DNA of 64,000 bases, taken from positions 320,240 to 384,239 of the forward strand of contig CAWIQG010000003.1 of the NCBI GenBank assembly GCA_963838215.1, given 5' to 3'. Of this stretch, positions 21,650-64,000 are shown piece by piece (the stretch's first letter is position 1; every line of letters starts with the position of its first letter). This stretch comes from an uncultured Bacteroidales bacterium (GTDB taxonomy: Bacteria > Bacteroidota > Bacteroidia > Bacteroidales > VadinHA17). Both the position numbers and the translations under genes were made by a program. The notes below the pieces were generated by a model, which saw only the letters and a list, made by a program, of their open reading frames with translations, had not been told where the DNA came from and did no database searches.

Positions 21650-21706
21650 AAAAGTAAAAAGTAAAAAGTAAAAAGTGAAAAGTTAAAAGTAAAAAGTAAA
21701 AAGGCA
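21650..21706. repeat. heptamer tandem array (AAAAGTA)n, about 8 units
   Basis: AAAAGTA x3, then AAAAGTG, AAAAGTT, AAAAGTA x2 and AAAAGGC. Begins 13 nt upstream of the recF start codon. Confidence 0.85.
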
Positions 21707-21948
21707 AAATGATATATTTAAATGGTTTAATACTTCAAAGTTAGAAAAAGAAACGCACAACCGGAATTGCATCTGACCTGAGATTACATTTTATCCTTCC
21801 TGTGATTCATAATATAACTACTCATATTCAGACAGATAACTATTATTTTATCTGCAATCTGATATTCATTAAATTAAATGTTTTAAAATTACCTGAAAAA
21901 AATTACTTTTGCGATGTTAAAATTTTGAAGTAACCAGTAAAGACCAGT

Positions 21949-22635
21949 ATGGCTAAGAATAAAAAGGATGTTAATCCACAGACCATTTCGAGCGTTGAGG
22001 AAACACTTACCAAAACGGAACAATATCTTGAAGAGAATTATAAAACCTTATTAATTGCATTAGCAGTAATAGTTGCATTGGTAGGAATTGTATGGCTTGG
22101 CAAGTTATATCTTGGTAAAAGAAACGATGAGGCACAGTCGCAGATGTACCAGGCAGAAAGGTATCTTGAAATGGATTCTTTAAGGCTTGCATTAAACGGC
22201 GATGGAAACTATCTTGGATTTCTTGACATATCCAGGGATTATAAATTTACAAAATCGGGGAATCTTGCCCTGTACAGTGCCGGGATCTGTTATCTCCATC
22301 TTGGTGATTACCAGAATGCAATTGATTTTCTTAACAAATATTCTAAAAAAGACAAGGTCTTAGGTTCATTGGCAATTGGAGCCACAGGTGATGCATATAT
22401 CGAAACAGGTGATCTTGATAAAGGTGTTTCAAAATACATCGAGGCTGCCGATTTTGCAAAAAACTCATTTAACACACCATTGTTCCTGATGAAAGCAGGT
22501 GAAATTTATGAACTAAACAATAAATATGCTGAAGCATTAAAAGTTTATGAAAGAATTGAGAGTGAGTATCCCGAGAGCACAGAAGGAACATCAATAGAGA
22601 AATATATTGCAAGAGTTAAGCTTCTGATAAAGTAG
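21949..22635 (+). CDS. membrane-anchored tetratricopeptide-repeat protein (YfgM-like)
   Basis: 228 aa with one N-terminal TM helix ([17 protein letters not shown]) and TPR-like repeats ([23 protein letters not shown]...). Confidence 0.65.
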
Positions 22636-22723
22636 CTCCATCAGTATATTCCATGTATTTATAAAACCACGCATTGGGCTCATTCTTTCTGAGACAGATG
22701 CGTTTCTTATTCTAAAAATTATT

Positions 22724-23212
22724 ATGAGCACTATAAATCTGTCAGTTTACGATCCGGAAAAAGTCCCTGAAGCAGGTGAAATGCGTTTTGGCATAGTGGT
22801 TTCCGATTGGAATAAAGATGTTACATGGTCTTTACTCGACGGAGCTGTCAGGACTCTTAAAAAACATGGAACAACTGATAATAATATAGTGGTTAAGCAT
22901 GTTCCCGGCAGCTTTGAACTGACGCTTGGCGCTCAATTCCTTGCAGAATACGATGATCTTGACGCTGTTATCTGTCTTGGATGTGTTATCCAGGGCGAAA
23001 CGCCTCATTTTACATATATCTGCCAGGGAGTAACACAGGGTATTACTCAACTGAATTTAGATTATAATATACCTTTTATATTCGGAGTTCTGACAACTGG
23101 CACCTATAAACAGGCAACTGACAGGGCTGGCGGGAAACTCGGTAACAAAGGTGATGAAGCAGCTATAACCGCAATCAAAATGGCTGCTTTGCAACGCGAA
23201 ATAGAAAAATAA
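22724..23212 (+). CDS. ribH: 6,7-dimethyl-8-ribityllumazine synthase
   Basis: 162 aa. [19 protein letters not shown] and [15 protein letters not shown] are typical of RibH. Confidence 0.93.
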
Positions 23213-23214
23213 GT

Positions 23215-24963: not shown

Positions 24964-25033
24964 TTAAGATATTTTAGAAAAGTGAAGCCAAATTATAAAA
25001 AAAAACGGTAATTACAGTAATTTTCGCCTATGC

Positions 25034-27961: not shown

Positions 27962-27989
27962 ATTTCTGATTTCTGATTTCTGATTTCTA
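27962..27989. repeat. heptamer tandem array (ATTTCTG) x4
   Basis: ATTTCTGATTTCTGATTTCTGATTTCTA, between the radical-SAM stop (27991) and the addB-like start (27931). Confidence 0.85.
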
Positions 27990-27990
27990 A

Positions 27991-28953
27991 TTAATATAGT
28001 CTTCCCTGCCAGGTATCAAACTCTTCAAGACGTTTTTCAATAAATTTAACGATCTGGTCGGAACGTATTCTGCCCCAGCCTTCTCCAGCCAGAAAACGTG
28101 GAGGTGCTTCACCTGTAAAACGTTCTACAATAATGGAAGGATTTAATCTTTCAAGGAATCTTACAAAGAAATCGAGATACTCTTCCATTGTAAAAAGCTC
28201 AAAATCGCCTGGATTGCTCTGAAATTCCTTTTCCATCATTGTCCCTTTCATAATCTGAAGCTGATGAAATTTTATTGTTCTGAGAGGCAACCGGGAGATA
28301 ATTGCAGCCTCATCAGACATTTCCTGTTTTGTTTCGCCAGGCAAGCCGAAAATAAAATGGGCACCGGTATTTATTCCAAGTTCAGCTGTTCGTTCAACGG
28401 CCCTTACTGCATCTTCAAATGAATGTCCACGATTGATCCGCTTTAGTGTTTTGTTGTAACACGATTCTATCCCATATTCAAGAACAAGGTAACAAGTTTT
28501 GGACAGCTCTCTTAAATATTCAAGCTTTTCTTCATCAATGCAATCCGGCCTTGTCCCGATTATCAGACCTTTCACTCCCGGATAATTCAATGCTTCCTTA
28601 TAAAGTTTTTTTAATGTCTCAAGTGAAGCATAAGTATTGGAGTATGCCTGAAAATAAGCCAGGTACGAAACAGCCCCGTTATATCTCCATCTGTGAAATT
28701 CAATTCCTTCCTCAATCTGTTGAGAAACTGATTTTGAAGGAGCGCAATACGAAGGATTAAATGCATCATTGTTACAATATGTACAGCCACCCGATCCTTT
28801 TGTTCCATCGCGATTAGGGCAGGTGAAACCGGCGTCAATGGAAACCTTCTGAACCCTGGCTCCATAGGTGTTTCTGAAATAATCGGAATAGGCATTGAAT
28901 CTTCGTTCATGGCCCCATGGATACACCATTTTCTCTTTCTTAACTGCCGGCAT
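27991..28953 (-). CDS. radical SAM protein (TIGR01212/YhcC-like)
   Basis: 320 aa. A Cys-rich segment FTCPNRDGTKGSGGCTYCNN near the N-terminus, and a TIM-barrel-like remainder typical of this radical SAM subfamily. Confidence 0.75.
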   Translation of the reverse strand: MPAVKKEKMVYPWGHERRFNAYSDYFRNTYGARVQKVSIDAGFTCPNRDGTKGSGGCTYCNNDAFNPSYCAPSKSVSQQIEEGIEFHRWRYNGAVSYLAYFQAYSNTYASLETLKKLYKEALNYPGVKGLIIGTRPDCIDEEKLEYLRELSKTCYLVLEYGIESCYNKTLKRINRGHSFEDAVRAVERTAELGINTGAHFIFGLPGETKQEMSDEAAIISRLPLRTIKFHQLQIMKGTMMEKEFQSNPGDFELFTMEEYLDFFVRFLERLNPSIIVERFTGEAPPRFLAGEGWGRIRSDQIVKFIEKRLEEFDTWQGRLY

Positions 28954-31900
28954 TTACAGATACAATTATATTCTTGTCAACATACCAGATAAAAGCTTCA
29001 ATATTACTATATCCCATATTGGAGAGTAAACGACGATACTGATCAACCTGTCCGGCATAATGAGGATTCTCCTCCCCAAACTTAAAATCAATAATTATAG
29101 CCTTACCATCTTTAAATATAACCCTGTCGGGACGACGTGTAACACCTGATGGTAATAATATACCTGCTTCAGTCATCACTTCATTACCGGACATAAACCA
29201 ATCTGCAACCTGAGGTATCCTGATCAGTGAGTTTACTCTTTTTTCAATGTCAGAGGATTCTTCTTCAGGCAGCTTGCCTTCAAGAACCAGTTTCCTTACA
29301 GCGGATGGAATATCGGATGGAGTATTAATTCCTTCAAAAACCTCGTGCATCAGTTTTCCATAGTTGATCTTTTTTCTTACCGCAATTTTATCTGTTGAAA
29401 AATAATTTTCACCGTGAAGCTTCAGCTTAAGCGACTCCATCTCGCGGCTGACGGAATATCCTGAAGAGATAAGATTCAAATTATCTTTTTTCTCCCTGCT
29501 TTTCACCGGTATTTTCCCAAATTCGAATAATCGTTTTTCACTGCTGTAAAAACTATTCAGCTTAAATCGTGAAAGTTCCGGAACTTCCGAATCAAGAATA
29601 ACAGCATTCTTTAGCACTCCGGCAATAGTGCTTTCAGACCTGGGATTATCTACTGAAAATCCATAAATAGCGTCTTTTGCTCTGGTAAGTGCAACATATA
29701 GCAGGTTAATATTATCGAGGTAAACCGAATATTTTTCTTCCTTAAAATCATCAGCAAAGATAGTGTTGGACAACTCCTTTCTATACTTCACAGGAACTAT
29801 ACCCAGTTCATTGAAAGGAGGTGCTGACGGTTTAACCCACAGAATGGGTTGTTTAGATGAAATATGATCGAGGTTCCAGGAGAGAAAAGGCAGAATAACC
29901 ACTTTGAATTCGAGTCCCTTCGACTTATGAATGGTCAGAATTCTCATTGCATCCTGGTTCCCCGGCAGGACGACAGATTTTTTTGTTCCGGTTGATTCCC
30001 ACCAGTCGAGGAATGATTGAATATCAGTATTTTTATTCCCGGTAAAACTCAAAATATGATCCTGAAAAGTATTCAGGTAAGCTACGTTCCAGGAATATTC
30101 TCCAAGATCAAAGAACCTTATAATGCTTTCAGTTGCTTCAAAAAGAGGCATTTGCCTAATCCCTTCGAGAAAAACTTCATAACCTTCCGGGAAATAAAGC
30201 TGTGACAGTTCAATCAGTTTATCACTTACCAGAGGCACTTTATCAGCCTCTTCATCTCCTTTTGCCAGAAGAAAGAATCTTAACATCAGGGCCCGGCTTA
30301 TCATATCTGCAGGATCATTTACCACTGAGATCACAGCAATAATGAAGTTAATTGCGGGAGAGTTTGAAAGCAGCAGTGAATCGTTTGATACTGCAGTAAA
30401 ATTATAAGCGCTCTTCTTTTCGGACGAACAGTTATTACTGTAGTCAATCAATGTCTTCAGAACCTGTGCCCCCTCCTTCCCATCGCGAACAATAATTCCA
30501 ATATCCGATGCATTATAACCTTTTCCTGTAGAGATTCAATTATAGCAGGAAGTCTCTCAAGTACAACTTCCTCCCACTTCTGTTCCTTCTCATTTTCTAT
30601 GAACTCCAGTCTTACATATCCGCCACTGCTGTTACCGGGATCGCCCTGAACAGCTTCAGAATAAAGTCTTCTGAAGCTCACCGGAAGTGTTTCACCTGCA
30701 AGTGTTTCATCAATCTGAAAAGGAATAATTGTAAAGAGCGAGTTATTGAATCTGATAATATTTGAACGGCTCCTCCAGTTTGTTGTCAATGGCTCACTAA
30801 TGAACCTGTCGTTGTCAACCATGCTGTTGAGTATTGAACCCAGAATCCGCCAGTCGCTGTTTCTCCACCTGTAAATTGATTGTTTCACGTCGCCCACAAC
30901 CAGGTTATCGAAACCCTCTGCCATGCTGTTTTCGATCAATGGCCTGAAATTATTCCACTGCATTATTGACGTATCCTGAAACTCATCGATCATGAAATTT
31001 TCATAAATATTGCCCACCTTTTCATAAATAAAAGGAGATTGATCCCCCCGGGTTATGAGGCTAAGTAATTCACCTGCATCGGATAAAAGAAAACTGTTTT
31101 CAGAATTGGTAATAAGATGAACATTGTGTAAAACGTCCGATAAGATTCCAAGGGCATAGATGTTAGACATAACAGCATCTGCACTTTTACAGCGGACTAT
31201 ATTATCATCATAAAAATGAATGGCTTCTTTCAATACTTTCTCCAGTCCGTTATTAATAGCATCCTGAAGTTGCGATGCAATTGAACCAGTTGACCACCTG
31301 GGAGGGTCATTTTCAATTTCACGGACATATCTGTTGGGCTCATTTACACTGCCGGAAGCAAGCGACCTGATAAAACGGGGCACTCCCTGACCCTTCCGAT
31401 AAAACAGATCATCGGACAATCCGAATTCTGAAAATAATCCTTCAGCTCTCTTACCATAATCAAGCAACTGTTTCTTAAATGAAGAAGATACAGATCTGAT
31501 CTTTTCAATATATTCGACAAGAAATTTTTTATTTTCAAGATTTGAACGCTCCCCGGTCGAAAGAATCCTGAATTTTTCCCTGAACAGTTCCTCTGCAAGT
31601 TTAATTATGCCGTCTTTCAGGTTCCAGCTTTTTTCTTCATCTATATTAGACATTGCATAAGAAATCAGCCAGTTTTTCAGCTGAGCATCAGAAGCAGCGG
31701 ATGCAATCATTTCATCAACAGCTGAAGATAATATTGTACTATGGTCCAGTTCAATATTAAATCCGGAATGAAGTCCGACCTCCCTGGCAAAGGCCCGCAA
31801 TATCTTCTGGAAAAAACTATCTATTGTAGAAACAGAGAACCGGGAAAAATCGTGCAGGATAGAATGCAGTATTTCTTTAGCTTCTGCCCTTATCCACTCT

Positions 31901-32148
31901 TCTGTTTTATTACAGGCATTAACCAGTTCCGGCAAATATTCTGAGTTCTCCCCGACAGCGAGTTTCTGAAGATTATCAAGGATTCTGGATTTCATTTCAG
32001 CAGTGGCTTTGTTGGTGAATGTCACTGCAAGTATCTTCCTGTAGTTGTATCTCGATTTGAATAGCCTTGTAAGATAAATGCCTGTCAGTTTATAAGTTTT
32101 TCCTGATCCTGCTGAAGCGCTGTATATGGTTAGAGTTCCTTGTTCCAT
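28940..32148 (-). pseudogene. UvrD/AddA-like helicase-nuclease, split by a 1-nt frameshift (or a sequencing error) near 30517-30528
   Basis: ORF 30457..32148 has Walker A SASAGSGKTY and UvrD motifs. ORF 28940..30451 has ILTIHKSKGLEFKVVILPF, VALTRAKDA and a C-terminal PD-(D/E)XK-like RPDRVIF...IIDFKFG. The frame-B reading GYNASDIGIIVRDGKEGAQVLKTLIDYSNN continues frame A directly if one A is added to the run CAGGAAAAGG. Confidence 0.75.
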
Positions 32149-32216
32149 TGTGGGTTAAAGTTACCGAATTTTACGCATTAGATTTTGCAAGGCTAAATAA
32201 AATTTGTCTTGCAGGT

Positions 32217-32277
32217 CCTTTAGTCCCTTCGTCTCTTAGTCCCTTAGTCCCTTAGTCCCTTAGTCCCTTAGTCCCTT
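32217..32277. repeat. octamer tandem array (CCTTAGTC)n, about 7.5 units
   Basis: CCTTAGTC CCTTCGTC TCTTAGTC, then CCTTAGTC x4. Located in the divergent region between the addA-like start and mnmA. Confidence 0.9.
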
Positions 32278-32313
32278 AAAAGGATCAATAGCCTTTTTAA
32301 CTATCTTTGCGTT

Positions 32314-33513: not shown

Positions 33514-33663
33514 TAGCTGGGACGAAGAGACGAAGAGACAAAAGACGCACGACTCACGGTACAGGACGCAAGTTGAAGAACAAATTAACCATGATAAGAT
33601 ATTGCAAATATCTTTTAGATAATAGTGAGTGCGGCAATATTATTTACCAGTTGCAGATCTCTA

Positions 33664-35676
33664 TTATTTGGTTCCGCTAGGCTCAACCTGCGCTGCTATC
33701 TGTTCAATCTTTTCCTTAAGTAAACCAAGTTCAGATTTAAGTTGCTGGTTCTCCAGTTTTGTGGCTTCGATCTGTTGCTGCTGTTCTTTGATGGCTTCAA
33801 CCAGTACCGGTACAACATCGCCATAAGCAACTGATTTTGTTTGCATTTTATCAGTGGCCGTACTTACAACCTGGGGCAATACTTTTTCAATATCCTGGGC
33901 TGCAAAACCGATATGGTTTCTGTCATCAACATTTAGTTCCGGGTTTACGGTTTTATCCCAATAAAAGGTAATACCCTGTAAAGCCATTACTTTGTCAAGT
34001 GCTCCGATAATTGGTTGGATGTCTTTCTTTAGACGTATATCGGAAGTATTAGCATATGGACTTGTTCCAGCTACGCTGCCCTTTACCTCAAGAGTATAGC
34101 TGGGAGAAGCAGTTCCTATACCGACTTGTTTTGCAGAAAAATCGCCATAAATCAGAGGAGTTGAAATATTTGTTGAGTTTTCAATGAAGAGTTTATTATC
34201 ACCCGCGTATTGCTGACCAGCCTGATAACCTATAAGGACATTACCTAGTCCCTGGCAATTATAGCCACTACCGTATCCAATGAAAACATTATTATTCCCA
34301 TAATTAAATCTCCCGGACATGTCACCCAGAAAAACGTTGTAATTCGGATTATTGTTTGGATATACTGATTCCTGCCCCTCCCCTGCCTGGGAACCAATCA
34401 TGGTGTTGCCTACACCAATCTTATTGTAATAACCGGCATAGTACCCCAGAAATATATTTTCGACTCCTGATGTATTATAATAACCTGAAGAATATCCAAG
34501 AAAAGTATTAAAATCAGCATCATTATTAGCTCCTGCATCAGATCCTATAAAGGTGTTTGTACCGCCTGATATATTATTAAGCCCGCTTCCATATCCAATG
34601 AATGTGTTACCTGTTCCGCTCTGATTGCTATATCCGCTTGCATCGCCTAAAAACACATTATCATAACCTCCAATATTACTATAGCCTGCACGATTTCCAA
34701 TAAAGACATTCGTAAAACCTGATATATTTCCTGAACCTGCCTGATAGCCCATAAAACAGTTTTGATAACCGCTGACATTGTTTAGACCTGCCTGGTAACC
34801 AATAAATGAGTTATATATCCCATTAAGACCTCCCGATGGAACAGTTTTTAAACCTGCCTGTTCCCCGATAAATACATTGAGCGGGGTAAGATTTAAATAA
34901 TTCACTTTCCCGGCTGCGACAGTATCAGTCTGTACCTTAAGATAACTATCATATTTCCCTTTTGATGTGCCGAAGCCACCTATTGCAAATCCACCCTTTG
35001 CTCCTTTGTCAGTGTCATCAATATATACTCTTACAGTATCGGACTTTACATAAAAATACTTCTGGGAAACACTTTTACCGGTTCCAAAACCTCCAATGGC
35101 AAAACCACCTTTAGCACCTTTGGAACCATTGTCGACATATACTCTTACTGCTTCATTATATACTGCGAAGACGGTATCGCCGGCTGCGTTTCTGACTGCA
35201 AATAGAGCCGGGTCTTTGGTTGTTGTCGTACCATCCACTTCGAGCTGGCTAAGTGACCCTTTCAAATTTCCTGCAACCAACGAATATGGTACCGACCAGA
35301 GTTGTGTTGTCCCCATTACTGTAAAGTCAGGAATAGAAGGAGGATTTTCGATTTCTGTTTTCAGATACAAAGTCTGGCTTCCCCATGGAATATCTGAAAA
35401 AACACCTGCTGATCCTCCCGTCTTTGAACCGTTGCCTATAACTAATACCATTACTCCAAACTTATCAGTAATTATTGAATGTGTTTCTATCCAGAATTCA
35501 TTACCACTTGCTAATGCCGGTTGGATGGAAATTCTTACAGTAAGACCCTGATTGGGTAAAACTGCTCCGGTTCCATCGCGGGCAATAGCCTGGTAATTGA
35601 AACCCTGGGGTACCTGGGAAGGCAAAAGACAAAAGTAAAAAGACAAAAGAACAGAGAGGAGGAATTTTGTTTTCAT
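33664..35676 (-). CDS. secreted fibre/adhesin-like protein with a C-terminal peptidase S74 (tail-fibre intramolecular chaperone) domain
   Basis: The start is set at MKTKFLLSVLLSFYFCLLPSQ (signal peptide); the upstream ORF extension is not credible. About 14-15-aa repeats NxFxGYxAGxxN. C-terminus SDIRLKKDIQPIIGALDKVMALQGITFYWDK...IGFAAQDIEKVLPQVV...VEAIKEQQQQIEATKLEN matches the S74 domain plus a coiled coil. Confidence 0.8.
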   Translation of the reverse strand: MKTKFLLSVLLSFYFCLLPSQVPQGFNYQAIARDGTGAVLPNQGLTVRISIQPALASGNEFWIETHSIITDKFGVMVLVIGNGSKTGGSAGVFSDIPWGSQTLYLKTEIENPPSIPDFTVMGTTQLWSVPYSLVAGNLKGSLSQLEVDGTTTTKDPALFAVRNAAGDTVFAVYNEAVRVYVDNGSKGAKGGFAIGGFGTGKSVSQKYFYVKSDTVRVYIDDTDKGAKGGFAIGGFGTSKGKYDSYLKVQTDTVAAGKVNYLNLTPLNVFIGEQAGLKTVPSGGLNGIYNSFIGYQAGLNNVSGYQNCFMGYQAGSGNISGFTNVFIGNRAGYSNIGGYDNVFLGDASGYSNQSGTGNTFIGYGSGLNNISGGTNTFIGSDAGANNDADFNTFLGYSSGYYNTSGVENIFLGYYAGYYNKIGVGNTMIGSQAGEGQESVYPNNNPNYNVFLGDMSGRFNYGNNNVFIGYGSGYNCQGLGNVLIGYQAGQQYAGDNKLFIENSTNISTPLIYGDFSAKQVGIGTASPSYTLEVKGSVAGTSPYANTSDIRLKKDIQPIIGALDKVMALQGITFYWDKTVNPELNVDDRNHIGFAAQDIEKVLPQVVSTATDKMQTKSVAYGDVVPVLVEAIKEQQQQIEATKLENQQLKSELGLLKEKIEQIAAQVEPSGTK

Positions 35677-35897
35677 AACAATAAGTTTTAACGGTTGAAA
35701 GACGCTAAGATTTAACGGCACAACGGCACAATGGCGCAATGGTAATAAGAATATTACATAGTCGAAATCTATTAATTTCAGAGGAAAGTTAGAATAAAAG
35801 ATATTACAAATCAAGTTTTTTTTGATGAATAGGTAAGGATTTAACATTTGAGGCGGGTTATAGGCGACAGGGGATGACTGAGGGTGAGGAACTGAGG

Positions 35898-35980
35898 GAC
35901 TTAGTGACGAAGAGACTTAGAGACTTAGTGACGAAGAGACTTAGAGACTTAGTGACGAAGAGACTTAGAGACTTAGTGAT
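35898..35980. repeat. 24-nt compound tandem repeat (3 x 8-mers), about 3.5 copies
   Basis: GACTTAGTGACGAAGAGACTTAGA x3, plus GACTTAGTGAT. Immediately downstream of the M1 peptidase stop. Confidence 0.9.
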
Positions 35981-39925: not shown

Positions 39926-39932
39926 AGTAATA

Positions 39933-39995
39933 GATTTAAGATTGAAGATTGAAGATTGAAGATTGGAGATTAAAGATTGAAGATTGAAGATTAAA
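39933..39995. repeat. heptamer tandem array (GATTGAA)n, 9 units
   Basis: GATTTAA, GATTGAA x3, GATTGGA, GATTAAA, GATTGAA x2, GATTAAA. Ends 8 nt upstream of the start codon at 39925 and reads AATCTTC on the coding strand. Confidence 0.9.
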
Positions 39996-40002
39996 ATATT
40001 AA

Positions 40003-41643
40003 CTAATTAAGTGATGTCCAGATTGTTCCATTATAGTAATACAAGTGATGATCTGTTTTTGCATAAATCATTCCTTCCACTGCTGGAGTCGGATCAGTAG
40101 TTAATAGCGGTAATTGCAAAACAGCATTAATTGTAAATCTCTGATTTGCCACTGTAGCATCAAATACTCCATAAACAAGGGCTTTTGTTCTTGCATCAGC
40201 TTCACTTGCCCTTTTCTGATTATCAATAAATAACTTATTGGAGCCGGTTTCATAATAACCTGACAGATAACCAATGAACAGGTTTCCAGATCCGGTCAAA
40301 TTTGAGGCTCCGGATTGAAATCCAATAAAAACATTATTTGAAGCTTTATTCGCAACCCCTGCCTGAGCTCCTATACAAAGTTCATTGCTGCCATGCTGAT
40401 TTACTTTTCCTGCTTCATAACCGAGATAAGTATTCAGGTTTCCGTCTATATTACTATTCCCTGCCTCGGCTGCTAGAAACATATTCTGATACCCGCTGGT
40501 GTTTGCGTTTCCTGCACTAGTACCAATGAAGACATTAGTGTTTCCACCAAGGTTAGCGGATCCACTGTTATATCCTATAAATATGTTATTGCTGCTGGTA
40601 GTATTTAGACCGCTGTTGTATCCTATAAATACGTTATAGTTCAAATTTCCTGAAGCTAAGTACCCAGCTCCATAGCCAAGAAACACATTATCAGTACCTA
40701 TTGTGTTGGTATAACCGGCTTTATATCCTATAAACAAATTATATGAAGGAGTTGTTATTTTACTATTATAGCCTGCCTGGTACCCAATAAATGTGTTGTA
40801 TGTAGAGTCAATAACCGGATTAGCATTACCTGCCTGATATCCAATGAAAATATTATTGTCTGAAAATTGCATATATTCATTTTTCCCGGCATTTATTTTA
40901 TCCTGATCCACATTAAGGTAATTTAGCCCTTTTCCTGTACCAAAACCACCTATTGAAAATCCACCCTTTGCTCCTTTTTCTTGTGTATCATCGATATACA
41001 TGTTTATAATGCCAGGATTTACGACCAGATAATCCTGTCCGGTCGGTGGAGGGTTGTCTTTACCAGAAGTGCCAAAACCGCCAATAGCGAAACCACCTTT
41101 TGCTCCTTTTGAACCATTGTCGACATACATTCTTACTGCTTCATTATAAACTGCAAATACGGTATTACCTGCTGTGTTTTTAACTTCAAAGAGAGCAGGA
41201 TCGTTGTCAGCTGACTTGCCATCCACTTCAAGCTGATCGAGTGAGCCGTTTAAATCTCCTGCCACCATTGAATAGGGAACCGACCAGAGCTGAGACGTTC
41301 CCATATCTACATAACCGGAACTTACCGGATATGCGATTTCTGTTTTCAGATAAAGAGTTTGAGCCCCCCATTCAATTGTTGAAAAAGTACCTGATGTTGG
41401 AGTACCGGTACCAATAACTAATTCCATTACTCCGAAATTATCGGTTTTAACCGTATTTGTTTCCTGATAGATAACGCTACCTGTAACTGTCTGGATAGTA
41501 ACTCTTATCCCCACCCAATCCTGGCTAATAACACCATTTTCATTCCGTGCAATAGCCTGGTAATTGAAACCCTGAGGAACCTGAGAAGATAAAAGACAAA
41601 AGTAGAAAGATAAAAGTGCAGAGAGGAGAAGTTTTGTTTTCAT
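40003..41643 (-). CDS. secreted fibre/adhesin-like protein, paralog of 33664..35676 without the S74 domain
   Basis: 546 aa. The first about 200 aa are nearly collinear with the paralog (MKTKLLLSALLSFYFCLLSSQVPQGFNYQAIAR..., QLWSVPYSMVAGDLNGSLDQLEVDG, TVFAVYNEAVRMYVDNGSKGAKGGFAIGGFGT). Carries the same NxFIGYxAGxxN repeats. Confidence 0.8.
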   Translation of the reverse strand: MKTKLLLSALLSFYFCLLSSQVPQGFNYQAIARNENGVISQDWVGIRVTIQTVTGSVIYQETNTVKTDNFGVMELVIGTGTPTSGTFSTIEWGAQTLYLKTEIAYPVSSGYVDMGTSQLWSVPYSMVAGDLNGSLDQLEVDGKSADNDPALFEVKNTAGNTVFAVYNEAVRMYVDNGSKGAKGGFAIGGFGTSGKDNPPPTGQDYLVVNPGIINMYIDDTQEKGAKGGFSIGGFGTGKGLNYLNVDQDKINAGKNEYMQFSDNNIFIGYQAGNANPVIDSTYNTFIGYQAGYNSKITTPSYNLFIGYKAGYTNTIGTDNVFLGYGAGYLASGNLNYNVFIGYNSGLNTTSSNNIFIGYNSGSANLGGNTNVFIGTSAGNANTSGYQNMFLAAEAGNSNIDGNLNTYLGYEAGKVNQHGSNELCIGAQAGVANKASNNVFIGFQSGASNLTGSGNLFIGYLSGYYETGSNKLFIDNQKRASEADARTKALVYGVFDATVANQRFTINAVLQLPLLTTDPTPAVEGMIYAKTDHHLYYYNGTIWTSLN

Positions 41644-41903
41644 AACTAATAAAATTTGAAAATTCAGTAATTTGAAATCTTAAAAAACACACTGACATAA
41701 CTGTTAAAAAACATAAAATCAGCTGTAAGTTATGTTAAAAAACATTTCCTGTCAAATTTTTTTGATGAATAATAGTAAAACAATTATGAAATTGACAATG
41801 AAAAGGGCAATTCAGGAGTATTGGATATATTGGAAAGACAAAAGACAAAAGGAAAAGGAACATAAGACCACAAGACCTTCAAGACCCGTAGTACCATCAT
41901 TTT

Positions 41904-43063: not shown

Positions 43064-43141
43064 CAGTTATGGCGTTATGCCATTATGCCGTTATGCCGTT
43101 ATGCCGTTATGCCGTTATGCCGTTATGCCGTTGAGCCGTTA
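43064..43141. repeat. octamer tandem array (CCGTTATG)n, about 10 units
   Basis: CAGTTATG, GCGTTATG, CCATTATG, CCGTTATG x5, CCGTTGAG, CCGTTAT. Fills the gap between the CANSDH stop and the nspC start. Confidence 0.9.
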
Positions 43142-45246: not shown

Positions 45247-45346
45247 ATTATGCTGAATTAGGTTTTGTTTAGATAATGAGCCGTTATTCCTGTTACAGAT
45301 GTCTTGTAATTTTTTTCACTTTTGCCTTTTACTTTTATCTTTTATC

Positions 45347-46387
45347 TTAATCTATCGACTTTCCACTCTCTAATTTTTCATATATCTGAACTCCGGGTAT
45401 CAGTCTGACTGTCTGAAATAATTCAGGAAGTGACACAGGAAGTTGTTCTGAATCAATCAACTGAATTAAAAGTTTAACCGCAAGAACGATACTGCCTGTA
45501 AAGGTCGGTTTCTTTTCGTACAATCCTCTGAATCCGAATGCACCAAGAGCCTGCATAAGCCTTATTATACTGAATCCGGCATAATAACCTCTGAACTTTT
45601 CCTGATCTTCGCCTGAAACCGTGCAGAAATTATTTACATGATAATCAAGAAGGTTTTGACGGGCAGTCAATGGTATATGAGCTTTTGCATCATACAGGAG
45701 CGACGCAACATCGTACTGAGGAGCACCTTTTCTTCCACCCTGATAATCAATAAACCATGGTTCTCCTTCAATTATCATGACATTTGCCGACTGGAAATCC
45801 CGATAGAGGAAATAATCCTGTCCGGTTTCAAGTAAAAAATCAGCAAGCATGTTAAAATTGTGTTCGAGCCTCCTCTCATTAAAAGGAACTGCAACAAGCT
45901 TAAGAAACATATATTTGAAATAATTCATATCCCACATCATCGATTGCCTGTCGAAACTTCTGTGCGGATAACAAAGATCAAGGTTCAGTCCTTCAATACC
46001 ATTTATCTGGAACTGAATCAGTTTATCAAGTATTTTCCGGTATATTATTTCAGCTTCCATATCAAAGCCGTTGCCTTCATGTTTTTTCTGAAGAAAAATA
46101 AACAGGTTCATATCGCCCAGATCCTGAAGAAAATAGATGTATTTTTCAGGAAAGTAACCAAATATTTCAGGGACAGGGAGATCTTTTGAAATGAAATGTT
46201 TTGTAAAACCTATAAAAGCTTCGTTCTCTTCAAAATTTGAATTATGAGCCCCGATTACGCTTTTAATACCGGCAGTTATTCTGAAATATTTTCTGTCGGA
46301 ACCTGATTGTGGCAAGGGTACTATTTTAAAATCTGATTCTCCTGATAATTCTTTGTATCCGTCTGATACAATGTCTATTTCACTCAT
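45347..46387 (-). CDS. aminoglycoside-phosphotransferase-fold sugar kinase (AmgK-like)
   Basis: 346 aa. Catalytic loop YRDFQSANVMI and metal-binding FIDYQGG, as in the APH/choline-kinase fold. Confidence 0.6.
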   Translation of the reverse strand: MSEIDIVSDGYKELSGESDFKIVPLPQSGSDRKYFRITAGIKSVIGAHNSNFEENEAFIGFTKHFISKDLPVPEIFGYFPEKYIYFLQDLGDMNLFIFLQKKHEGNGFDMEAEIIYRKILDKLIQFQINGIEGLNLDLCYPHRSFDRQSMMWDMNYFKYMFLKLVAVPFNERRLEHNFNMLADFLLETGQDYFLYRDFQSANVMIIEGEPWFIDYQGGRKGAPQYDVASLLYDAKAHIPLTARQNLLDYHVNNFCTVSGEDQEKFRGYYAGFSIIRLMQALGAFGFRGLYEKKPTFTGSIVLAVKLLIQLIDSEQLPVSLPELFQTVRLIPGVQIYEKLESGKSID

Positions 46388-46476
46388 TCACTAAATAATT
46401 ATCTTTTGTCTTGCGGCTTTGCGGTCCCATTACTTTTGTCTTTTTCCTTTTGTCATTTGTCTTATAACTTACAGTT

Positions 46477-47586
46477 TTACAACCTGATAAACACTTTCTT
46501 CTTATAAAGGATCATCGCAACTCCCCAAATCAGCAACATCTGTATTATTGCGAACATCAGGCTGCCGTTGAGATTGCCTGCAACCGGTACACAAATCTTA
46601 CTGTAAAGCCAATCATAGAGATTTATTGCATTATCGCCCGATGATATTTTTATTATCAACATCAGCCTTGTCCAGATTCCTGAAAGAATGTAGGCAAAAA
46701 TAGCATTAGTACCAAATACTGCGAAAAACGTTCCCCATATCTGGAATTTTAAAACATCTGCAATCAGATAGATAATAGCAAAAACACCCATGGCAATTCC
46801 CGCGGAATAGAGTACATAAGAACTTGTCCATAAAGGCTTATTAATAGGGAAAATCAGGTTCCATAATAAACCGAGTCCCGCTGATGCAATGCCAAATAAT
46901 AGAAGTTTAATTACAGTTTTTCCGCTGGCAGATCCTTTTCCTACTGTTTCTCCTATAAAATAACCTATAACAACTGTACCGATTGTGGGTAAAGTGCTCA
47001 ATAATCCTTCAGGTTCAAAAGAAATTCCAAATCCTTTGTAAAGATGAGCTTTCCCTAGAATGGCAATGTCAGCCTTAAGCACAAAGTTCCCTTCAAGACT
47101 ATAAGGATCAGCACCGCCAAATAATAACAATAAGCCCCAGTAAAGAAGCAATAAGACTGTGACAACGATCCATAAGTATTGCCTTCTGACTGACAGACAT
47201 ATAATTGCACCCAATCCATAAGCAAGTGCTATTCGTTGCAGAACGCCCATTATTCTGACCGTGGAATAATCTCTTCCAAAGTAAGGAAAGATATTAAGAA
47301 ACAGACCTATTGCGAAAATAGCCACAATCCGCCTGAAAATCCTGATAAGGGAACTTCCATTGAGTTTGCCTCCGTATTTCTTAAGAGAGTACCAGGTTGA
47401 TATTCCAACGATGAAAAGGAAAAAAGGGTAAACAAGATCTGTAGGAGTGCATCCGTTCCATTTTGAATGCTCCAAAGGAGAATAAATATATTGCCAGCTC
47501 CCGGGAGTATTGACGATTATCATAAATGCTAACGTCAATCCTCTGAAGATATCAAGGGAAACCAATCTGCTGCTGTTTTTTGCCAT
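46477..47586 (-). CDS. multi-pass membrane protein, HGSNAT/DUF5009-like acyltransferase family
   Basis: 369 aa. N-terminus RLVSLDIFRGLTLAFMIIVNTPGSW and about 10 predicted TM helices. Confidence 0.55.
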   Translation of the reverse strand: MAKNSSRLVSLDIFRGLTLAFMIIVNTPGSWQYIYSPLEHSKWNGCTPTDLVYPFFLFIVGISTWYSLKKYGGKLNGSSLIRIFRRIVAIFAIGLFLNIFPYFGRDYSTVRIMGVLQRIALAYGLGAIICLSVRRQYLWIVVTVLLLLYWGLLLLFGGADPYSLEGNFVLKADIAILGKAHLYKGFGISFEPEGLLSTLPTIGTVVIGYFIGETVGKGSASGKTVIKLLLFGIASAGLGLLWNLIFPINKPLWTSSYVLYSAGIAMGVFAIIYLIADVLKFQIWGTFFAVFGTNAIFAYILSGIWTRLMLIIKISSGDNAINLYDWLYSKICVPVAGNLNGSLMFAIIQMLLIWGVAMILYKKKVFIRL

Positions 47587-50670: not shown

Positions 50671-50820
50671 GACACAAAGCTCACGACTCAGGACTCAGGG
50701 AAAAATGTTGTTTTAGTTATTTCGTATGTCGTGCATCGCGAGTTGTGCATCGTGCATCGTGTGTAGTGTGTCGTGTGTCGTGTGTCGATAATCGTGATGA
50801 CGGTATATTATAAAAACAGA

Positions 50821-50854
50821 AACCAGACTGCAGATTACAATCTGGTTTTTTTTT
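50821..50854. terminator. bidirectional terminator hairpin
   Basis: AACCAGA-CTGCAGATTACAA-TCTGGTT, flanked by an A-run upstream and a T-run downstream. Lies between the GH3-fusion gene (+) and tRNA-Leu (-). Confidence 0.6.
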
Positions 50855-50855
50855 G

Positions 50856-50939
50856 TGCCCAGAACAAGACTCGAACTTGCATACCGTTACCGGCACCAGC
50901 CCCTCAAGCTGGCGTGTCTACCAATTTCACCATCTGGGC
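50856..50939 (-). tRNA. tRNA-Leu (anticodon GAG)
   Basis: 84 nt: GCCCAGATGGTGAAATTGGTAGACACGCCAGCTTGAGGGGCTGGTGCCGGTAACGGTATGCAAGTTCGAGTCTTGTTCTGGGCA. The cloverleaf folds with a long variable arm. The anticodon loop is TTGAGGG. No CCA is encoded. Confidence 0.9.
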
Positions 50940-51011
50940 GTAATAGCTCAGGGCTTGGAGCTCAGGGCCTCCTGCCCTGCGCTCTGTGCTCTACGCACTG
51001 CGCCAACACTG

Positions 51012-51095
51012 TGCCCAGAACAGGACTCGAACCTGCACATCATTACTGACACTAGTCCCTGAAACTAGCGCGTCTACCAATTTCGCCATCTGGGC
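51012..51095 (-). tRNA. tRNA-Leu (anticodon CAG)
   Basis: 84 nt: GCCCAGATGGCGAAATTGGTAGACGCGCTAGTTTCAGGGACTAGTGTCAGTAATGATGTGCAGGTTCGAGTCCTGTTCTGGGCA. The anticodon loop is TTCAGGG and there is a long variable arm. Confidence 0.9.
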
Positions 51096-58810: not shown

Positions 58811-58836
58811 TTTATTAATATATTTGATAGATAGAA

Positions 58837-59034: not shown

Positions 59035-59131
59035 TCGTTAAACGCATTGATAAAATTAATTATAGTATTAACAGATTGTTCAGCAACTAAGAGTCTTTAA
59101 CCCGACCGCTGACATTCAAAAATGATGAGTT

Positions 59132-59476: not shown

Positions 59477-59490
59477 AATATTGCTTCATA

Positions 59491-59526
59491 AAAAAAGCTG
59501 ACCCGGAAAGAGTCAGCTTTTTTTTA
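59491..59526. terminator. bidirectional rho-independent terminator between rplT (+) and lepB (-)
   Basis: AAAAAAGCTGAC-CCGGAAAGA-GTCAGCTTTTTTTT. Confidence 0.75.
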
Positions 59527-60900: not shown

Positions 60901-60942
60901 GATAAATCTATTTTTTAGAAGCGGTAAAAGTATGAATAATTA

Positions 60943-61659
60943 TCAGAATCCCATCACATCGTTCATTGTGAAGATTCCTTGTTTAGAAGATATAAATTCA
61001 GCGGCAACAACTGCCCCCAGTGCTAACCCTTTCCTGTTCCTGGCTTCATGTTTCAGACTTATTGTATCGATCTCCGAATCCCATGTCACAATATGGGTTC
61101 CCGGAACTTCTCCTTCGCGAACAGAACGTATTGGGATACAATTATTTGATTTATCATTCTCAAAACACCAGGTTTTATAATCCTGATGATTTTTCTCGAT
61201 ACCTGCAGCAAGCGTTATTGCAGTTCCGCTTGGTGCATCGAGCTTTTTGACATGATGAATCTCCTCAATAGAGACTTTATAGTCATGATAACGGTCCATC
61301 TGTTTTGCCAGTTCGGTATTCAGTCTGAAAAGCAGATTAACTCCTATACTGAAATTTGAAGAGTGAATAAAAGAGGTTTTATTCTTCTTACAGATATCAA
61401 CAACCTTTTCATAATTGTCCAGCCATCCGGTGGTGCCGGAAACAACAGGAACTTTTTCTCCTAAACACTTTATAATATTATTAAATGCTGCAGTAGGGAA
61501 TGAAAACTCAATGGCTACATCAATCCCCTTAAGTTTAGCCTCATTCAGATCATTAGTATTATCCTGATCTACAATAAGTTTGATAATATGACCTCTTTTA
61601 ATGGCTATGGATTCAATCTCATGGCCCATACGACCGTACCCGATAATTGCTATGTTCAT
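60943..61659 (-). CDS. dapB: 4-hydroxy-tetrahydrodipicolinate reductase
   Basis: The start is set at MNIAIIGYGRMG (NAD(P) binding). Signature EEIHHVKKLDAPSGTA. Confidence 0.9.
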   Translation of the reverse strand: MNIAIIGYGRMGHEIESIAIKRGHIIKLIVDQDNTNDLNEAKLKGIDVAIEFSFPTAAFNNIIKCLGEKVPVVSGTTGWLDNYEKVVDICKKNKTSFIHSSNFSIGVNLLFRLNTELAKQMDRYHDYKVSIEEIHHVKKLDAPSGTAITLAAGIEKNHQDYKTWCFENDKSNNCIPIRSVREGEVPGTHIVTWDSEIDTISLKHEARNRKGLALGAVVAAEFISSKQGIFTMNDVMGF

Positions 61660-61909
61660 AGTTTGTTTTTCCTGCGAAATTACCTGTTTTAAAACACCAT
61701 CCATCATCAAAAATCAACAAAATTCTTAAAGAGAAGTTAAAATATGGCATGAGGTGTGAAACGTGAGGTTCTTTACTAAAAGCAACCTCTTAACTGTTCA
61801 CTGTTACTGTTCACTGCTCACTGCTCACTTTTTTCCTTTGCAATCTTAGTTCTTTAATCTTTAATCTTTGCGATCTTTGCGGATAATGGATTTATAATAA
61901 AAAATTAGT

Positions 61910-63601
61910 ATGCAAAACCTAATTATCACATTATCAATACTAACCATGACATTATCACTTTCATGTACACAGAAAGAGAAAGCCGACCTTGTAATTATAA
62001 ACGGGAAGGTTCTCACAATGGATAAAGACAATCCGACAGTTGAAGCCGTTGCAGTAAAGGGAGAGACCATAATTGCCGTGGGTACCACTAAAAAGATCTC
62101 TGAATATATTGAAAATGGGAAAACTAAAGTTATTGATGCCGCAGGAAGACTTGTAATTCCTGGGTTCAATGATGCTCACGTACACTTTGGTCCTCTTGAT
62201 CCTGATTATATTGAACTTCGCTATATAACTGATCCTTCAGTTATTACTGAAAAAGTTAAAGCGCAGGTCGCCAGGGCCAGACCAGGGGAACTGATCAGGG
62301 GAGGACATTGGGAACATGAGATGTTTATTAATAAACAATGGCCAACTAAAGAGCTTATAGATAAAGTTTCTCCGGATAACCCCGTTATTCTCAACAGAGC
62401 AGACGGTCATTCTGTGCTCGTTAACAGTTATGTACTTAAGGCTTCAGGTATCACAAGTAAAACTCCTGATCCTTTCGGAGGAGTAATTCAGAAAGATCCG
62501 TTGACAGGTGAACCTACAGGAATATTAAAGGAAAATGCTGAAGACATGATTAAAACTGGGGAAGTTAAACCGAAAAGAAGTTCTGAAGAAGACAGTTTAA
62601 GATTATGGAATGGTTATCTCCTGGCTTTGAAGGAAGCACGGGAAGTCGGTGTTACAAGCGTGCAGATCCCCGGGAGTGCAGATTTCGGAATGTATGAAAA
62701 ACTTCAGAAGGAGGGTGATCTTACCTGCCGGATCGATATCGGAAAATTTCTTACAGGCGATACTTTAGTTCTTAAAAATTACATGAAAATTGCAAAGAAA
62801 TATTCAAAAGCAGGAAACTGGATAAGATTTGGATATCTGAAAGCATTTATGGATGGCACAATAGGATCGGGCACTGCATTAATGTTTGAACCATTTACCG
62901 ATAATAAATCAACATCGGGATTAGCGTTGATCCCATACGATGATATGGAGAAAATGATTATTACTGCTGACAAGGCTGGATTCCAGGTGGGTGTTCATGC
63001 AATTGGTGATAAAGCAAATAACTGGATATTAAATGCTTATGAAAAAGCTGAAAAAGTGAACGGAAAACGCGACAGCCGTCATAGGATTGAACATGCACAG
63101 ACTCTTCAGCAATCAGATATTCCTCGCTTTGCCAAACTTGGCGTGATAGCTTCAATGCAGCCGACACACTGTATTTCCGACAAGAAATTCTGCGAAAAAC
63201 GTATTGGCCCCGAAAGAGCCAAAGGCGCTTATGAATGGAAAAGTCTGGCAGATGCAGGTGCAGCTCTGGCTTTTGGGACTGATTACCAGGTAGAACCATT
63301 GAATCCGATGGAGGGTTTGTACGCTGCAGTTACACGGAAAGACAGATTGGGAGAAGAGGGAAACGGATGGTACGCGGAACAAAAGATTTCGATGGAAGAT
63401 GCGATCAGGTACTATACTCTTGGTTCTTCTTATGCCCAGTTCATGGAAAACCGGAAAGGTATCATAAAACCCGGTTACCTTGCTGATATTGTAATTACTG
63501 ACAAAGACTTGCTGACAATTCCTGAGAATGAAATAATGAAGACTAAGGTGGAATGTACAATTATCGGTGGAAAAATCGTATACTATTCAGGAGGTTTGTG
63601 A
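61910..63601 (+). CDS. amidohydrolase-family metal-dependent hydrolase (YtcJ-like), lipoprotein
   Basis: 563 aa. Lipobox LSLSC and metal motif PGFNDAHVHF. The later His/Asp ligands (HAIGD, EHAQ, GTDY) fit the amidohydrolase 3 family. Confidence 0.8.
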   Translation: MQNLIITLSILTMTLSLSCTQKEKADLVIINGKVLTMDKDNPTVEAVAVKGETIIAVGTTKKISEYIENGKTKVIDAAGRLVIPGFNDAHVHFGPLDPDYIELRYITDPSVITEKVKAQVARARPGELIRGGHWEHEMFINKQWPTKELIDKVSPDNPVILNRADGHSVLVNSYVLKASGITSKTPDPFGGVIQKDPLTGEPTGILKENAEDMIKTGEVKPKRSSEEDSLRLWNGYLLALKEAREVGVTSVQIPGSADFGMYEKLQKEGDLTCRIDIGKFLTGDTLVLKNYMKIAKKYSKAGNWIRFGYLKAFMDGTIGSGTALMFEPFTDNKSTSGLALIPYDDMEKMIITADKAGFQVGVHAIGDKANNWILNAYEKAEKVNGKRDSRHRIEHAQTLQQSDIPRFAKLGVIASMQPTHCISDKKFCEKRIGPERAKGAYEWKSLADAGAALAFGTDYQVEPLNPMEGLYAAVTRKDRLGEEGNGWYAEQKISMEDAIRYYTLGSSYAQFMENRKGIIKPGYLADIVITDKDLLTIPENEIMKTKVECTIIGGKIVYYSGGL

Positions 63602-63844
63602 GCAATCCGATAAAGAACAAAGTATCTTCATCGCCTCGTCCCTGTTTGAACCGCAAAATTCAGTTTCGGCCTTAAAATCAGTACATACCTTTGGTTTGAA
63701 AGAATTAGTGTATATAGCACACTTATAATTATCCAGCAAATGAATGCATCTGACACCCGCCGGCTTTCCATCAGGCATACCGGGCAATGGAGAAGAGATT
63801 GACAATGCAATGCAACAGGCACCACAATCAGAACGACAATCCAT
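63587..63844 (-). CDS. YkgJ-family cysteine-cluster protein
   Basis: 85 aa. CxxCxxCC-type motif DCGACCI plus later Cys residues (RCIHL, YKCAIY, KVCTDF). Confidence 0.7.
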   Translation of the reverse strand: MDCRSDCGACCIALSISSPLPGMPDGKPAGVRCIHLLDNYKCAIYTNSFKPKVCTDFKAETEFCGSNRDEAMKILCSLSDCSQTS

Positions 63845-64000
63845 AAGTGATGTATTAAATGGCGTTTTGCGAATCGACGTAACTTTTTAAAGAGAGAAAA
63901 AACATATTGACTGTTATAATTTATACAAATATATTAAATCAGTGGAAATAAAATATTTCCGCTGACTTTGCCCGTTGCGCCGTTGTGCCGTTGCGCCGTT

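Follow-up and report, generated by a model that had tools for sequence, protein, structure and literature searches.

What are the short tandem repeats that fill so many gaps between genes in a chromosome segment of an uncultured Bacteroidales bacterium, and why do they lie where they do? The segment, called here the window, is a stretch of 64,000 nucleotides (nt; G000:C3:320240-384239) of genome G000, a 3.69 Mb assembly in seven contigs with a G+C content of 38% and 98% completeness, whose closest public relatives are metagenome-assembled genomes (MAGs) of uncultured Bacteroidales. The repeats are head-to-tail arrays of heptamers and octamers. They belong to the class of tandem repeats known as short tandemly repeated repetitive sequences (STRR) or long simple sequence repeats (LSSR), of the type described in Xanthomonas. 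The arrays exceed chance expectation by far, are anchored to the stop codon of the gene that precedes them with their purine-rich strand in the sense direction, and change length on the scale of their units between near-identical genomes. Their units come from a common vocabulary that also builds the arms of cassettes encoding S23p/TIGR02436 proteins.

Arrays were counted genome-wide with Tandem Repeats Finder (TRF), for periods 7 and 8 and at least 3.5 copies, against open reading frames (ORFs) of at least 80 codons. The genome carries 193 of them, 117 with a period of 7 and 76 with a period of 8, and the copy number per array ranges from 3.5 to 93. Other periods give 38 (period 6), 6 (period 9) and 16 arrays (period 10). 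Most lie outside coding sequence: 161 arrays (83%) are mostly outside ORFs, which occupy 87.4% of the DNA (binomial p ~5e-111), and in the 2004 spacers 150 arrays are counted where five dinucleotide-preserving shuffles average 3.8. The window has 13 arrays, the mean being 3.25 per 64-kb bin, and 5 of 106 bins reach that number. A preliminary description of the window had seen in the arrays a limited number of related units, located almost exclusively in non-coding DNA, and had suspected a process that acts across the genome. The genome-wide scan, with its enrichment outside ORFs and with families of 15-27 loci, agrees with this view.

The arrays start where genes stop. Gene coordinates were obtained with a longest-ORF caller, which gives approximate starts and exact stops. 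In same-strand gaps genome-wide the median distance is 13 nt to the upstream stop and 85 nt to the next start, and a stop is no more than 8 nt away for 49 arrays, when uniform placement in the same gaps predicts 17.9 +/- 2.8. Array density per kb is 0.40 in same-strand gaps and 0.45 in convergent gaps, compared to 0.175 in divergent gaps (chi-square p = 5.5e-4). The preliminary description placed most arrays in the ~70 nt that precede a start codon; this apparent proximity is due to the short gaps of the window, the genome-wide anchor being the upstream stop. Native gene ends are left intact. The carboxynorspermidine dehydrogenase-like gene of the window terminates in the same ...DLEL-stop ending in all relatives, its native stop being unaltered by the array that follows. 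Past ORF 46477-47586 the gap is just 10-12 nt long and arrayless in two relatives (L017, L022), and AAAAGAY arrays are found directly past the stop in five species. Since native stops are unaltered and an empty gap measures 10-12 nt, the arrays are additions to tight junctions. A side effect is that ORF calls are distorted, with ORFs reading into arrays.

The sense strand of the arrays is preferentially the purine-rich one. In same-strand gaps 76 arrays have a purine-rich and 34 a pyrimidine-rich sense strand (p = 8e-5); in convergent gaps the ratio is 19:5 relative to the nearer gene. The purine-rich arrays lie at a median of 4 nt from the stop, 57% of them within 8 nt, compared to a median of 59 nt for the pyrimidine-rich ones (Fisher p = 4e-5). 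Replication-strand bias was ruled out as the cause because genes on the leading strand (44:24) and on the lagging strand (32:10) both show the purine bias. The polarity therefore tracks gene direction. Avoidance of Rho-type polarity (rut sites) on a downstream gene provides no explanation either, as convergent gaps, where no gene lies downstream, show the bias undiminished.

Under a strict rule 27 arrays belong to family GACNNAGR, 22 to AAAAGAY, 15 to AANGGYRY, and 6 each to CAGRGCN and AAGTTCA; many arrays left unclassified are evident variants. Some unit positions are fixed within a family and others are variable. Several loci consist to 100% of one unit variant, which points to recent local amplification. 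The same families are found in related Bacteroidales MAGs at orthologous and non-orthologous sites, and the occurrence of such arrays across Bacteroidales is patchy. About 85% of the arrays are solitary and predicted to be unstructured, and roughly one in six forms a long stem with a complementary array that is pyrimidine-rich. Beyond controls, ~10-13% of arrays have an inverted partner no more than 400 nt away (G.U pairs allowed). In folds of the spacers a median of 22% of array bases pair outside the array (median z-score -0.45), and in 25 of 156 arrays at least 60% of the bases pair with sequence outside the array. These numbers rule out hairpin arms as the general architecture. Conserved non-repeat flanks were sought around the arrays and none was found. 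Mobile repeats of the repetitive extragenic palindrome/bacterial interspersed mosaic element (REP/BIME) type or of the miniature inverted-repeat transposable element (MITE) type were also ruled out by this lack of flanks, by the mostly unstructured state and by the position of the seven divergent Y1_Tnp matches of the genome, none of which adjoins a listed array.

The same units occur in a second setting. The genome has eight matches to PF05635 (S23p), five of them confirmed as TIGR02436 'four helix bundle protein', and the closest solved relatives of these proteins are 2GSC (Xanthomonas) and 2RLD (Bacteroides thetaiotaomicron). Seven of the eight are bracketed by arrays of the same vocabulary, the arms being CAGGGAC/TGATTTC, AAGTTCA/AACCTCG, GACNNAGR, GGGGTAT/ACCCC, CAGRGCN/GCYCTGN, AAAAGRC/GYCTTTT and GATGATT/AATCATC. 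The eighth is the Avd protein of a diversity-generating retroelement (DGR) beside its reverse transcriptase and has no heptamer arms. When ~29 related Bacteroidales genomes are included, arrays flank 36 of the 37 PF05635 loci examined (8 in G000 and 29 in the relatives). Of 38 cassettes, 35 have a purine-rich 5′ arm, an asymmetry that inversion is unable to change. The two arms are complementary beyond controls in 22 of 43 cassettes from G000 and its relatives, weakly so in those of G000 itself. The stems are ~87% Watson-Crick paired, with 42 G.U-type mismatches in the sense and 42 in the antisense orientation, and strand-specific RNA folding of the stems thus finds no support. In G000 the cassettes lie in variable regions with capsule-type genes, AAA_14/DUF4143 ATPases, toxin-antitoxin-like pairs and a transposase. 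S23p cassettes are built like the protein-coding intervening sequences (IVS) of 23S rRNA, but they lie between protein genes.

Most arrays stand apart from such cassettes. An S23p ORF, met at the seven loci mentioned, is absent from the window and from the neighbourhood of ~177 of the 193 arrays; the window arrays are therefore not cassettes. Decay of former cassettes into solitary arrays was rejected: read-through six-frame translation revealed no PF05635 remnants within 600 nt of arrays, the known cassettes apart. A reverse-transcriptase origin was also rejected, as the genome has two reverse transcriptase genes (one of the DGR) and neither adjoins heptamer arms. Some observations were made around these loci. 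The DGR (G000:C6:234243-235910) comprises the reverse transcriptase, the Avd-type gene (best NCBIfam match DivGenRetAVD) and, on both sides, a near-repeat pair resembling variable and template repeats (VR/TR) that differ at scattered positions. Downstream of one S23p gene (G000:C3:1826660-1826870) there are ~20 copies of the 14-mer AATCATCAATCGCC, composed of two heptamer-like halves, with a short complementary GATGATTG run between gene and array.

The link between cassettes and solitary arrays was followed for the GACNNAGR family, and the co-occurrence described here covers that family only. S23p subfamily A (C3:1814414-1814782) has orthologues with 75-77% identity in G001, G005, G007, G010 and G018. 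In each of these five genomes the arms read GACNNAGR on the 5′ side and YCTNNGTC on the 3′ side, and the copies are spread over at least four genomic contexts. S23p copies of 59-67% identity have GGGRGAR/YTCYCCC arms, and one of them sits in the same ileS/cobB gap as subfamily A does in G007 and G010. Four consecutive GACNNAGR units give 18-164 hits each in eight genomes of the genus (G000 and 7 of 24 others), at most one hit in the other 17 and none in 16 genomes of other genera; the reversed-pattern control gives zero in every genome. The compared genomes are kin, so these counts are not independent. Six of the eight GACNNAGR-rich genomes have subfamily A and two carriers are without a detected cassette. 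The carriers are not one clade: the identity of a 982-amino-acid (aa) orthologue to that of G000 spans 86-58% among them, and the family is missing from genomes at 83% and 76%. High numbers of GACNNAGR arrays are mainly a feature of those genomes of the genus that also carry the cognate S23p subfamily.

The ileS/cobB gap, which houses an S23p cassette in G007, G010 and G013, has neither cassette nor heptamer array in G000, where CCCCC...GGGGG-type hairpins are found instead (C6:25713-26090). G/C-run hairpins of the type CCCCCTTTGAAGGGGG / CCCCCCTTTTAGGGGGGG are a second small intergenic element, present beside heptamer arrays in the relatives L002, L007 and L015, at these sites in the gap past the hyp369 orthologue.

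The arrays change length. Look-ups with exact protein sequences led to one ENA metagenome contig (ERZ25039473:contig_17701; its loci are labelled L162, L163 and L165) and one Logan contig (L164), one look-up being without match; same-species contigs were sought in JGI metagenomes and none was found, the best match having 43% identity. Genome and ENA contig have 57.5 kb in common that are 99.7% identical. Arrays represent 1.1% of this DNA, and yet every indel of at least 6 nt (three in all) falls within an array, 3 of 13 arrays being different. The array at 39932-39992 is 21 nt longer in L162 by a clean, in-register block of three AATCTTC units. The other two differences have odd lengths, +15 nt at 32215-32278 (L163) and -11 nt at 35891-35979 (L162), and are less certain because the ENA contig carries single-base indel errors. 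Unit-scale length change between near-identical genomes implies that slipped-strand change is real. In close relatives, 0, ~2 and ~5 AAAAGAY units follow the same stop, the remainder of the spacer being conserved. Long arrays also limit assembly, as seen from the ends of the short-read Logan contig, which both fall within arrays (21648-21703 and 27962-27992). Contig C3 ends in 93 copies of AAGGTTC (C3:1855779-1856431) and C6 begins with two arrays (C6:1-127).

The preliminary description had suggested slipped-strand elements that tune promoter or 5′ untranslated region (UTR) spacing. The slippage is supported by the length changes. The tuning is not: stop anchoring, depletion in divergent gaps and housekeeping neighbours (see below) mean that spacing of promoters or 5′ UTRs is not the general role. 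Its other suggestion of a specific insertion process, or seeding, is plausible, given arrays that start 0-8 nt past native stops in a single polarity.

The repeat features of the window are the following, with TRF periods and copy numbers:
21648-21703, plus strand: (TAAAAAG)x8 (7 nt x8), in the divergent gap between a recF-like gene (20519-21637, minus) and a TPR gene (from 21949, plus); the same in the ENA contig; L164 begins within it.
27962-27992, minus strand: (CAGAAAT)x4.4 on the sense strand (TRF), overlapping by 2 nt the stop of radical-SAM gene 27991-28953, with the next start 30 nt away; L164 terminates within it.
32215-32278, plus strand: (GTCCCTTA)x8 (8 nt x8), complementary to the GACNNAGR family and located upstream of mnmA in a divergent gap; longer in L163.
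33521-33571, plus strand: (GACGAAGA)x3.5 (33521-33547, 8 nt x3.5), then GACGCAC-type units, sense strand purine-rich, starting 7 nt past the mnmA stop in a convergent gap.
35619-35650, minus strand: CTTTTGT-type heptamers within an ORF (TRF), coding for the signal-peptide core LLSFYFCLL of protein 33664-35676.
35714-35742, plus strand: (AACGGCAC)x3.2 of the AANGGYRY family (8 nt), upstream of the start of a fibre-like gene.
35891-35979, minus strand: compound 24-nt repeat of three GACNNAGR-family octamers (8 nt x9.9 = 24 nt x3.7), sense (minus) strand pyrimidine-rich, starting 10 nt past the M1-peptidase stop; weak self-structure in fold prediction; shorter in L162.
39932-39992, minus strand: (AATCTTC)x8.7 on the sense strand (TRF), filling a same-strand gap of 77 nt; predicted unstructured (minimum free energy, MFE, 0 kcal/mol); longer in L162.
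41586-41616, minus strand: heptamer-like run within an ORF (TRF), coding for the same signal-peptide core in the paralogue 40003-41643.
41834-41886, minus strand: CTTTTGTC-type, two short runs on the sense strand (TRF, 2.6 and 2.7 copies), 13 nt past the nspC stop; unchanged in L162.
43066-43142, minus strand: (AACGGCAT)x9.6 on the sense strand (8 nt), predicted unstructured, starting at the base that follows the native TAA with which the carboxynorspermidine dehydrogenase-like gene ends; the orthologous gap of relatives has the same family, a different family, no array or a terminator.
45314-45353, minus strand: AAAAGAT-type heptamers on the sense strand (TRF), overlapping the stop of an APH-like gene; 0 copies at this site in L004 and ~2 in L010, both close relatives.
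46395-46470, minus strand: degenerate AAAAGAC-type heptamers on the sense strand, starting just past the stop of 46477-47586; the family also follows the stop of its orthologue in L002, L004, L010 and L012.
50676-50787, plus strand: GACTCAG-type purine-rich run and pyrimidine-rich (TCGTGYR)n array (50727-50787, 7 nt x4.4-4.7) with imperfect pairing, the run starting 6 nt past the GH3 stop; two substitutions relative to the ENA contig; fold no better than shuffles (z = -0.39).
50941-51005, minus strand: CAGGGCN / GCCCTGN hairpin of 65 nt (MFE -30.6 kcal/mol, z = -1.95).
61793-61881, plus strand: (ACTGTTC)x5.4 (61793-61829, 7 nt x5.4) and a TCTTTAA-type run (61851-61881, 7 nt x2.7 and 9 nt x2), in the divergent dapB / amidohydrolase gap; a single 1-nt difference relative to L165.
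63968-64000, plus strand: (TTGCGCCG)x4.2, complement of the AANGGYRY family (8 nt), running to ~64008 past the window end.

Twelve of the 14 arrays in the preliminary description are reported by TRF at the coordinates given there, with 2.7-9.9 copies. Two are weaker than described: 41834-41886 resolves into two runs of just 2.6-2.7 copies each, while 46395-46470, presented as an octamer, gives no TRF report at score 30 and reads as degenerate heptamers on the minus strand. TRF adds 45314-45353 and 50680-50699, as well as the within-ORF runs at 35619-35650 and 41586-41616. The genes beside the window arrays have housekeeping functions (polyamine synthesis, mnmA, dapB, helicase/nuclease, peptidases). 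Downstream of the 50676-50787 arrays, at ~50822-50852, lies a separate hairpin with a T-run behind it that by eye resembles a terminator, and the 50941-51005 hairpin, of the same repeat vocabulary, separates two minus-strand tRNA-Leu genes (anticodons gag and cag) in 50855-51095. The paralogues 33664-35676 and 40003-41643 have a near-identical signal peptide, MKTK(F/L)LLS(V/A)LLSFYFCLL..., whose core is coded by the heptamer-like runs, and a decaying S23p ORF at C6:9988-10392 continues across its own 3′ arm into ...FYFCLLPFVFYP. At these sites coding sequence may have been recruited from a repeat arm.

Other features of the window were recorded. A CRISPR array with a period of ~76 nt and ~25 repeats (10126-12009) is accompanied by cas2, cas1 and a cas9-sized ORF of 1380 aa (12889-18386). 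Beside this locus lies an ORF of the Y1 transposase family (PF01797; 12304-12750, 148 aa). Six further Y1 matches are found in the genome (30-67% identity, one being a 33-residue fragment), one match lying ~800 nt from an S23p cassette arm (C3:1795887-1796291); the pattern is more like that of REP-associated tyrosine transposases (RAYT) or domesticated copies than active insertion sequences. The UvrD/AddA-like helicase-nuclease (28940-32148, minus) is in two ORFs in G000. The ENA contig has an additional T at 30521 and a single ORF of 1069 aa. The split in the G000 assembly is either a frameshift error or a pseudogene. A clustered patch of differences between the two assemblies is found at 18903-18943.

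Repeats of this kind have precedents (Mazel 1990; Mrazek 2007; Rehm 2015). LSSRs (Mrazek et al. 2007, as summarised in PMC4679880) have units of 5-11 nt. Here we find head-to-tail units within that range, in excess with a mode near 7 nt, intergenic, recurrent, nearer to the upstream ORF end and variable in length between close genomes (the second assembly having some indel errors). From what is cited of the STRR of heterocystous cyanobacteria (Calothrix PCC 7601) in PMC4692102 and of the LSSRs in PMC4679880, the likeness extends to several heptamer families per genome at dispersed intergenic loci, to heptamers as the commonest class and to a sporadic phylogenetic distribution. The present arrays differ from those accounts in phylum, in units, in octamers that are almost as common as heptamers (76 vs 117) and in the position rules, polarity rules and cassette link documented here. 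The heptamers GGGAATC of Xanthomonas and GGGGA(C/T)T of Nostoc are ~90% intergenic and without explained function (Rehm et al. 2015; PMC4692102), the Xanthomonas ones lying 28 nt from the upstream ORF end vs 160 nt from the next ORF. They have in common with our arrays the proximity to the upstream ORF end, overlaps with stop codons, rarity between divergent ORFs, length and sequence variation among close relatives and some inverted pairs. However, they form one G-rich, quadruplex-capable family whose G-rich strand is found about equally on either strand (30-35% each), whereas at least 12 families of 7 and 8 nt are present here, mostly A/G-rich and without G-runs, 69-79% with the purine-rich strand sense and abutting the stop.

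Three further systems offer partial parallels. TAACTGA direct repeats of marine Beggiatoaceae, cyanobacteria and five Bacteroidetes including a Paludibacter (MacGregor 2015; PMC4679880) are likewise intergenic heptamers in Bacteroidetes, with several families per region and a suggested post-transcriptional role. They are a single heptamer in 2-6 copies, mostly a few nt upstream of starts, whereas our arrays, without a TAACTGA family, reach 93 copies and are anchored to stops. The 23S rRNA IVS of Coxiella burnetii has strain-variable GACAGAT heptamers 5′ of its S23p ORF and is cut by RNase III at the first repeat (Warrier et al. 2016; PMC4990558). It resembles the cassettes in its S23p/TIGR02436 ORF, in its complementary termini (clear in 22 of the 43 cassettes) and in its purine-rich tandem heptamers on the 5′ side. 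The cassettes differ in lying between protein genes and not in rRNA, in arms that are long arrays and in that none of the seven is in the window; furthermore, more than 90% of the arrays are without any ORF. The contingency simple sequence repeats of Haemophilus and Neisseria (PMC2651432) are similarly prone to slippage, with copy numbers that differ between close strains, but they have units of 1-5 nt (rarely 7) in ORFs or promoters of surface-structure genes, and the arrays here lie past the stops of housekeeping genes.

How could arrays of one vocabulary come to stand behind so many genes? In the reading that we favour, units drawn from the vocabulary of the cassette arms would be seeded at stop-proximal sites with a fixed polarity. 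Slipped-strand mispairing would then make the arrays grow, shrink and homogenise in place, and they would persist where they disturb neither ORFs nor promoters. The typical copy would sit 0-8 nt past a native stop in a spacer that is probably transcribed, its purine-rich strand sense, and where arms pair they might be processed by RNase III. Most copies are read as selfish or near-neutral passengers, the neutrality being our inference. Taken as a whole, STRR/LSSR-type arrays with S23p-arm vocabulary, seeded past stops, shaped by slippage and mostly near-neutral, this account has in our judgement an even chance of being correct.

Several observations weigh against it. With regard to the seeding step, no conserved non-repeat flanks were found around the arrays and no S23p remnants beside the ~177 solitary ones. 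For AANGGYRY, an abundant family, a cognate cassette is missing from a genome that is 98% complete. Gene and arms of a cassette are physically linked, and their covariation may be co-inheritance alone; the co-occurrence test concerned one family in genomes that are kin. Retention of a family at the same gap in five species, together with the strong polarity, could reflect selection for function. Part of the length differences could be assembly noise caused by the single-base indel errors of the second assembly.

Selection for function leads to the alternative that survives best, rather unlikely though we hold it to be, namely that the purine-rich unstructured arrays are functional RNA elements. 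As 3′-UTR or intercistronic platforms for a protein (an S23p paralogue, S1, a cold-shock or an RRM protein) they would determine how stable an mRNA is, how it is processed or how the next cistron is translated, in a lineage whose initiation is not led by Shine-Dalgarno sequences. A polarity that follows gene and not replication direction, arrays predicted to be single-stranded, a family kept at the same gap across several species, a restricted set of units in which some positions are fixed and others vary, and the co-occurrence of unit families with the cognate S23p subfamily are all consistent with such a role, which MacGregor (2015; PMC4679880) suggested for the TAACTGA repeats. However, at least 12 unrelated unit families without common motif are difficult to accommodate, the flanking genes are of unrelated function, copy number varies freely between close genomes, and orthologous gaps in related species work at 10-12 nt without any array.

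Arrays that are purely by-products of replication slippage, in a lineage whose machinery favours slippage of 7-8 nt and with S23p genes that merely share the permissive spacers, represent an unlikely alternative. The sharp mode at periods 7-8, for which Mrazek (2007) proposed an origin in the polymerase footprint (according to the summaries in PMC4679880 and PMC4692102), would follow directly, as would the unit-scale indels, the homogenised variants specific to each locus and the patchy occurrence in Bacteroidales. Birth in situ nevertheless predicts unrelated units, whereas the same octamer family occupies 27 loci here and different loci in other species. It also leaves unexplained the strict purine-first polarity at stops, the purine-rich 5′ arms in 35 of 38 cassettes and the family-specific co-occurrence with an S23p subfamily.

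A more specific proposal, which we regard as speculative and quite improbable, is that each S23p/TIGR02436 paralogue is a sequence-specific reader of one 7-8-nt family. The arrays would then be paralogue-specific marks on transcripts or DNA, forming small post-transcriptional regulons or processing sites, and the cassette arms would be the autoregulatory copy. If true, this would provide a function for heptamer repeats unexplained since 1990, and also for a very common, uncharacterised family of small proteins, the non-retroelement relatives of DGR Avd.

Phase variation at contingency loci, in which copy number alters promoter or 5′-UTR spacing or reading frame and so switches the neighbouring genes, is highly improbable. 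Copy number does vary between near-identical genomes, some arrays in short gaps lie a few nt before starts (39932-39992, 46395-46470), and a few overlap gene ends or code for a signal-peptide core. But contingency loci are placed in the 5′ part of ORFs or in promoters and associate with surface genes, while the arrays are anchored to stops and not starts, depleted in divergent promoter gaps, outside ORFs in 83% of cases, adjacent to housekeeping and not to surface or host-interaction genes, and their steps of 7-8 nt are coarse. An assembly or sequencing artefact, considered in the preliminary description and suggested by contigs that break at long arrays (the C3 end, the C6 start and both ends of the Logan contig), can be dismissed, since the same arrays recur, mostly base-identical, in the independent ENA and Logan assemblies, and dozens of related MAGs that stem from other projects contain the same families.

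For decades tandem heptamers have been known, without explanation, from cyanobacteria, Xanthomonas, Beggiatoaceae and a few Bacteroidetes. The present analysis adds stop-anchored polarity statistics, the mostly solitary state of the arrays in Bacteroidales, co-occurrence at the level of a family and a comparison of array lengths between two assemblies. In practice the arrays interrupt short-read assemblies, differ in length between near-identical genomes and lead to distorted ORF calls. The uncultured Bacteroidales bacterium studied here provides a quantitative case, with three rules that any mechanism proposed for these repeats has to account for: a starting point at the stop codon, a purine-first polarity in gene direction and a small vocabulary found also in the arms of S23p cassettes, which for the one family tested co-occurs with the cognate S23p subfamily across genomes.

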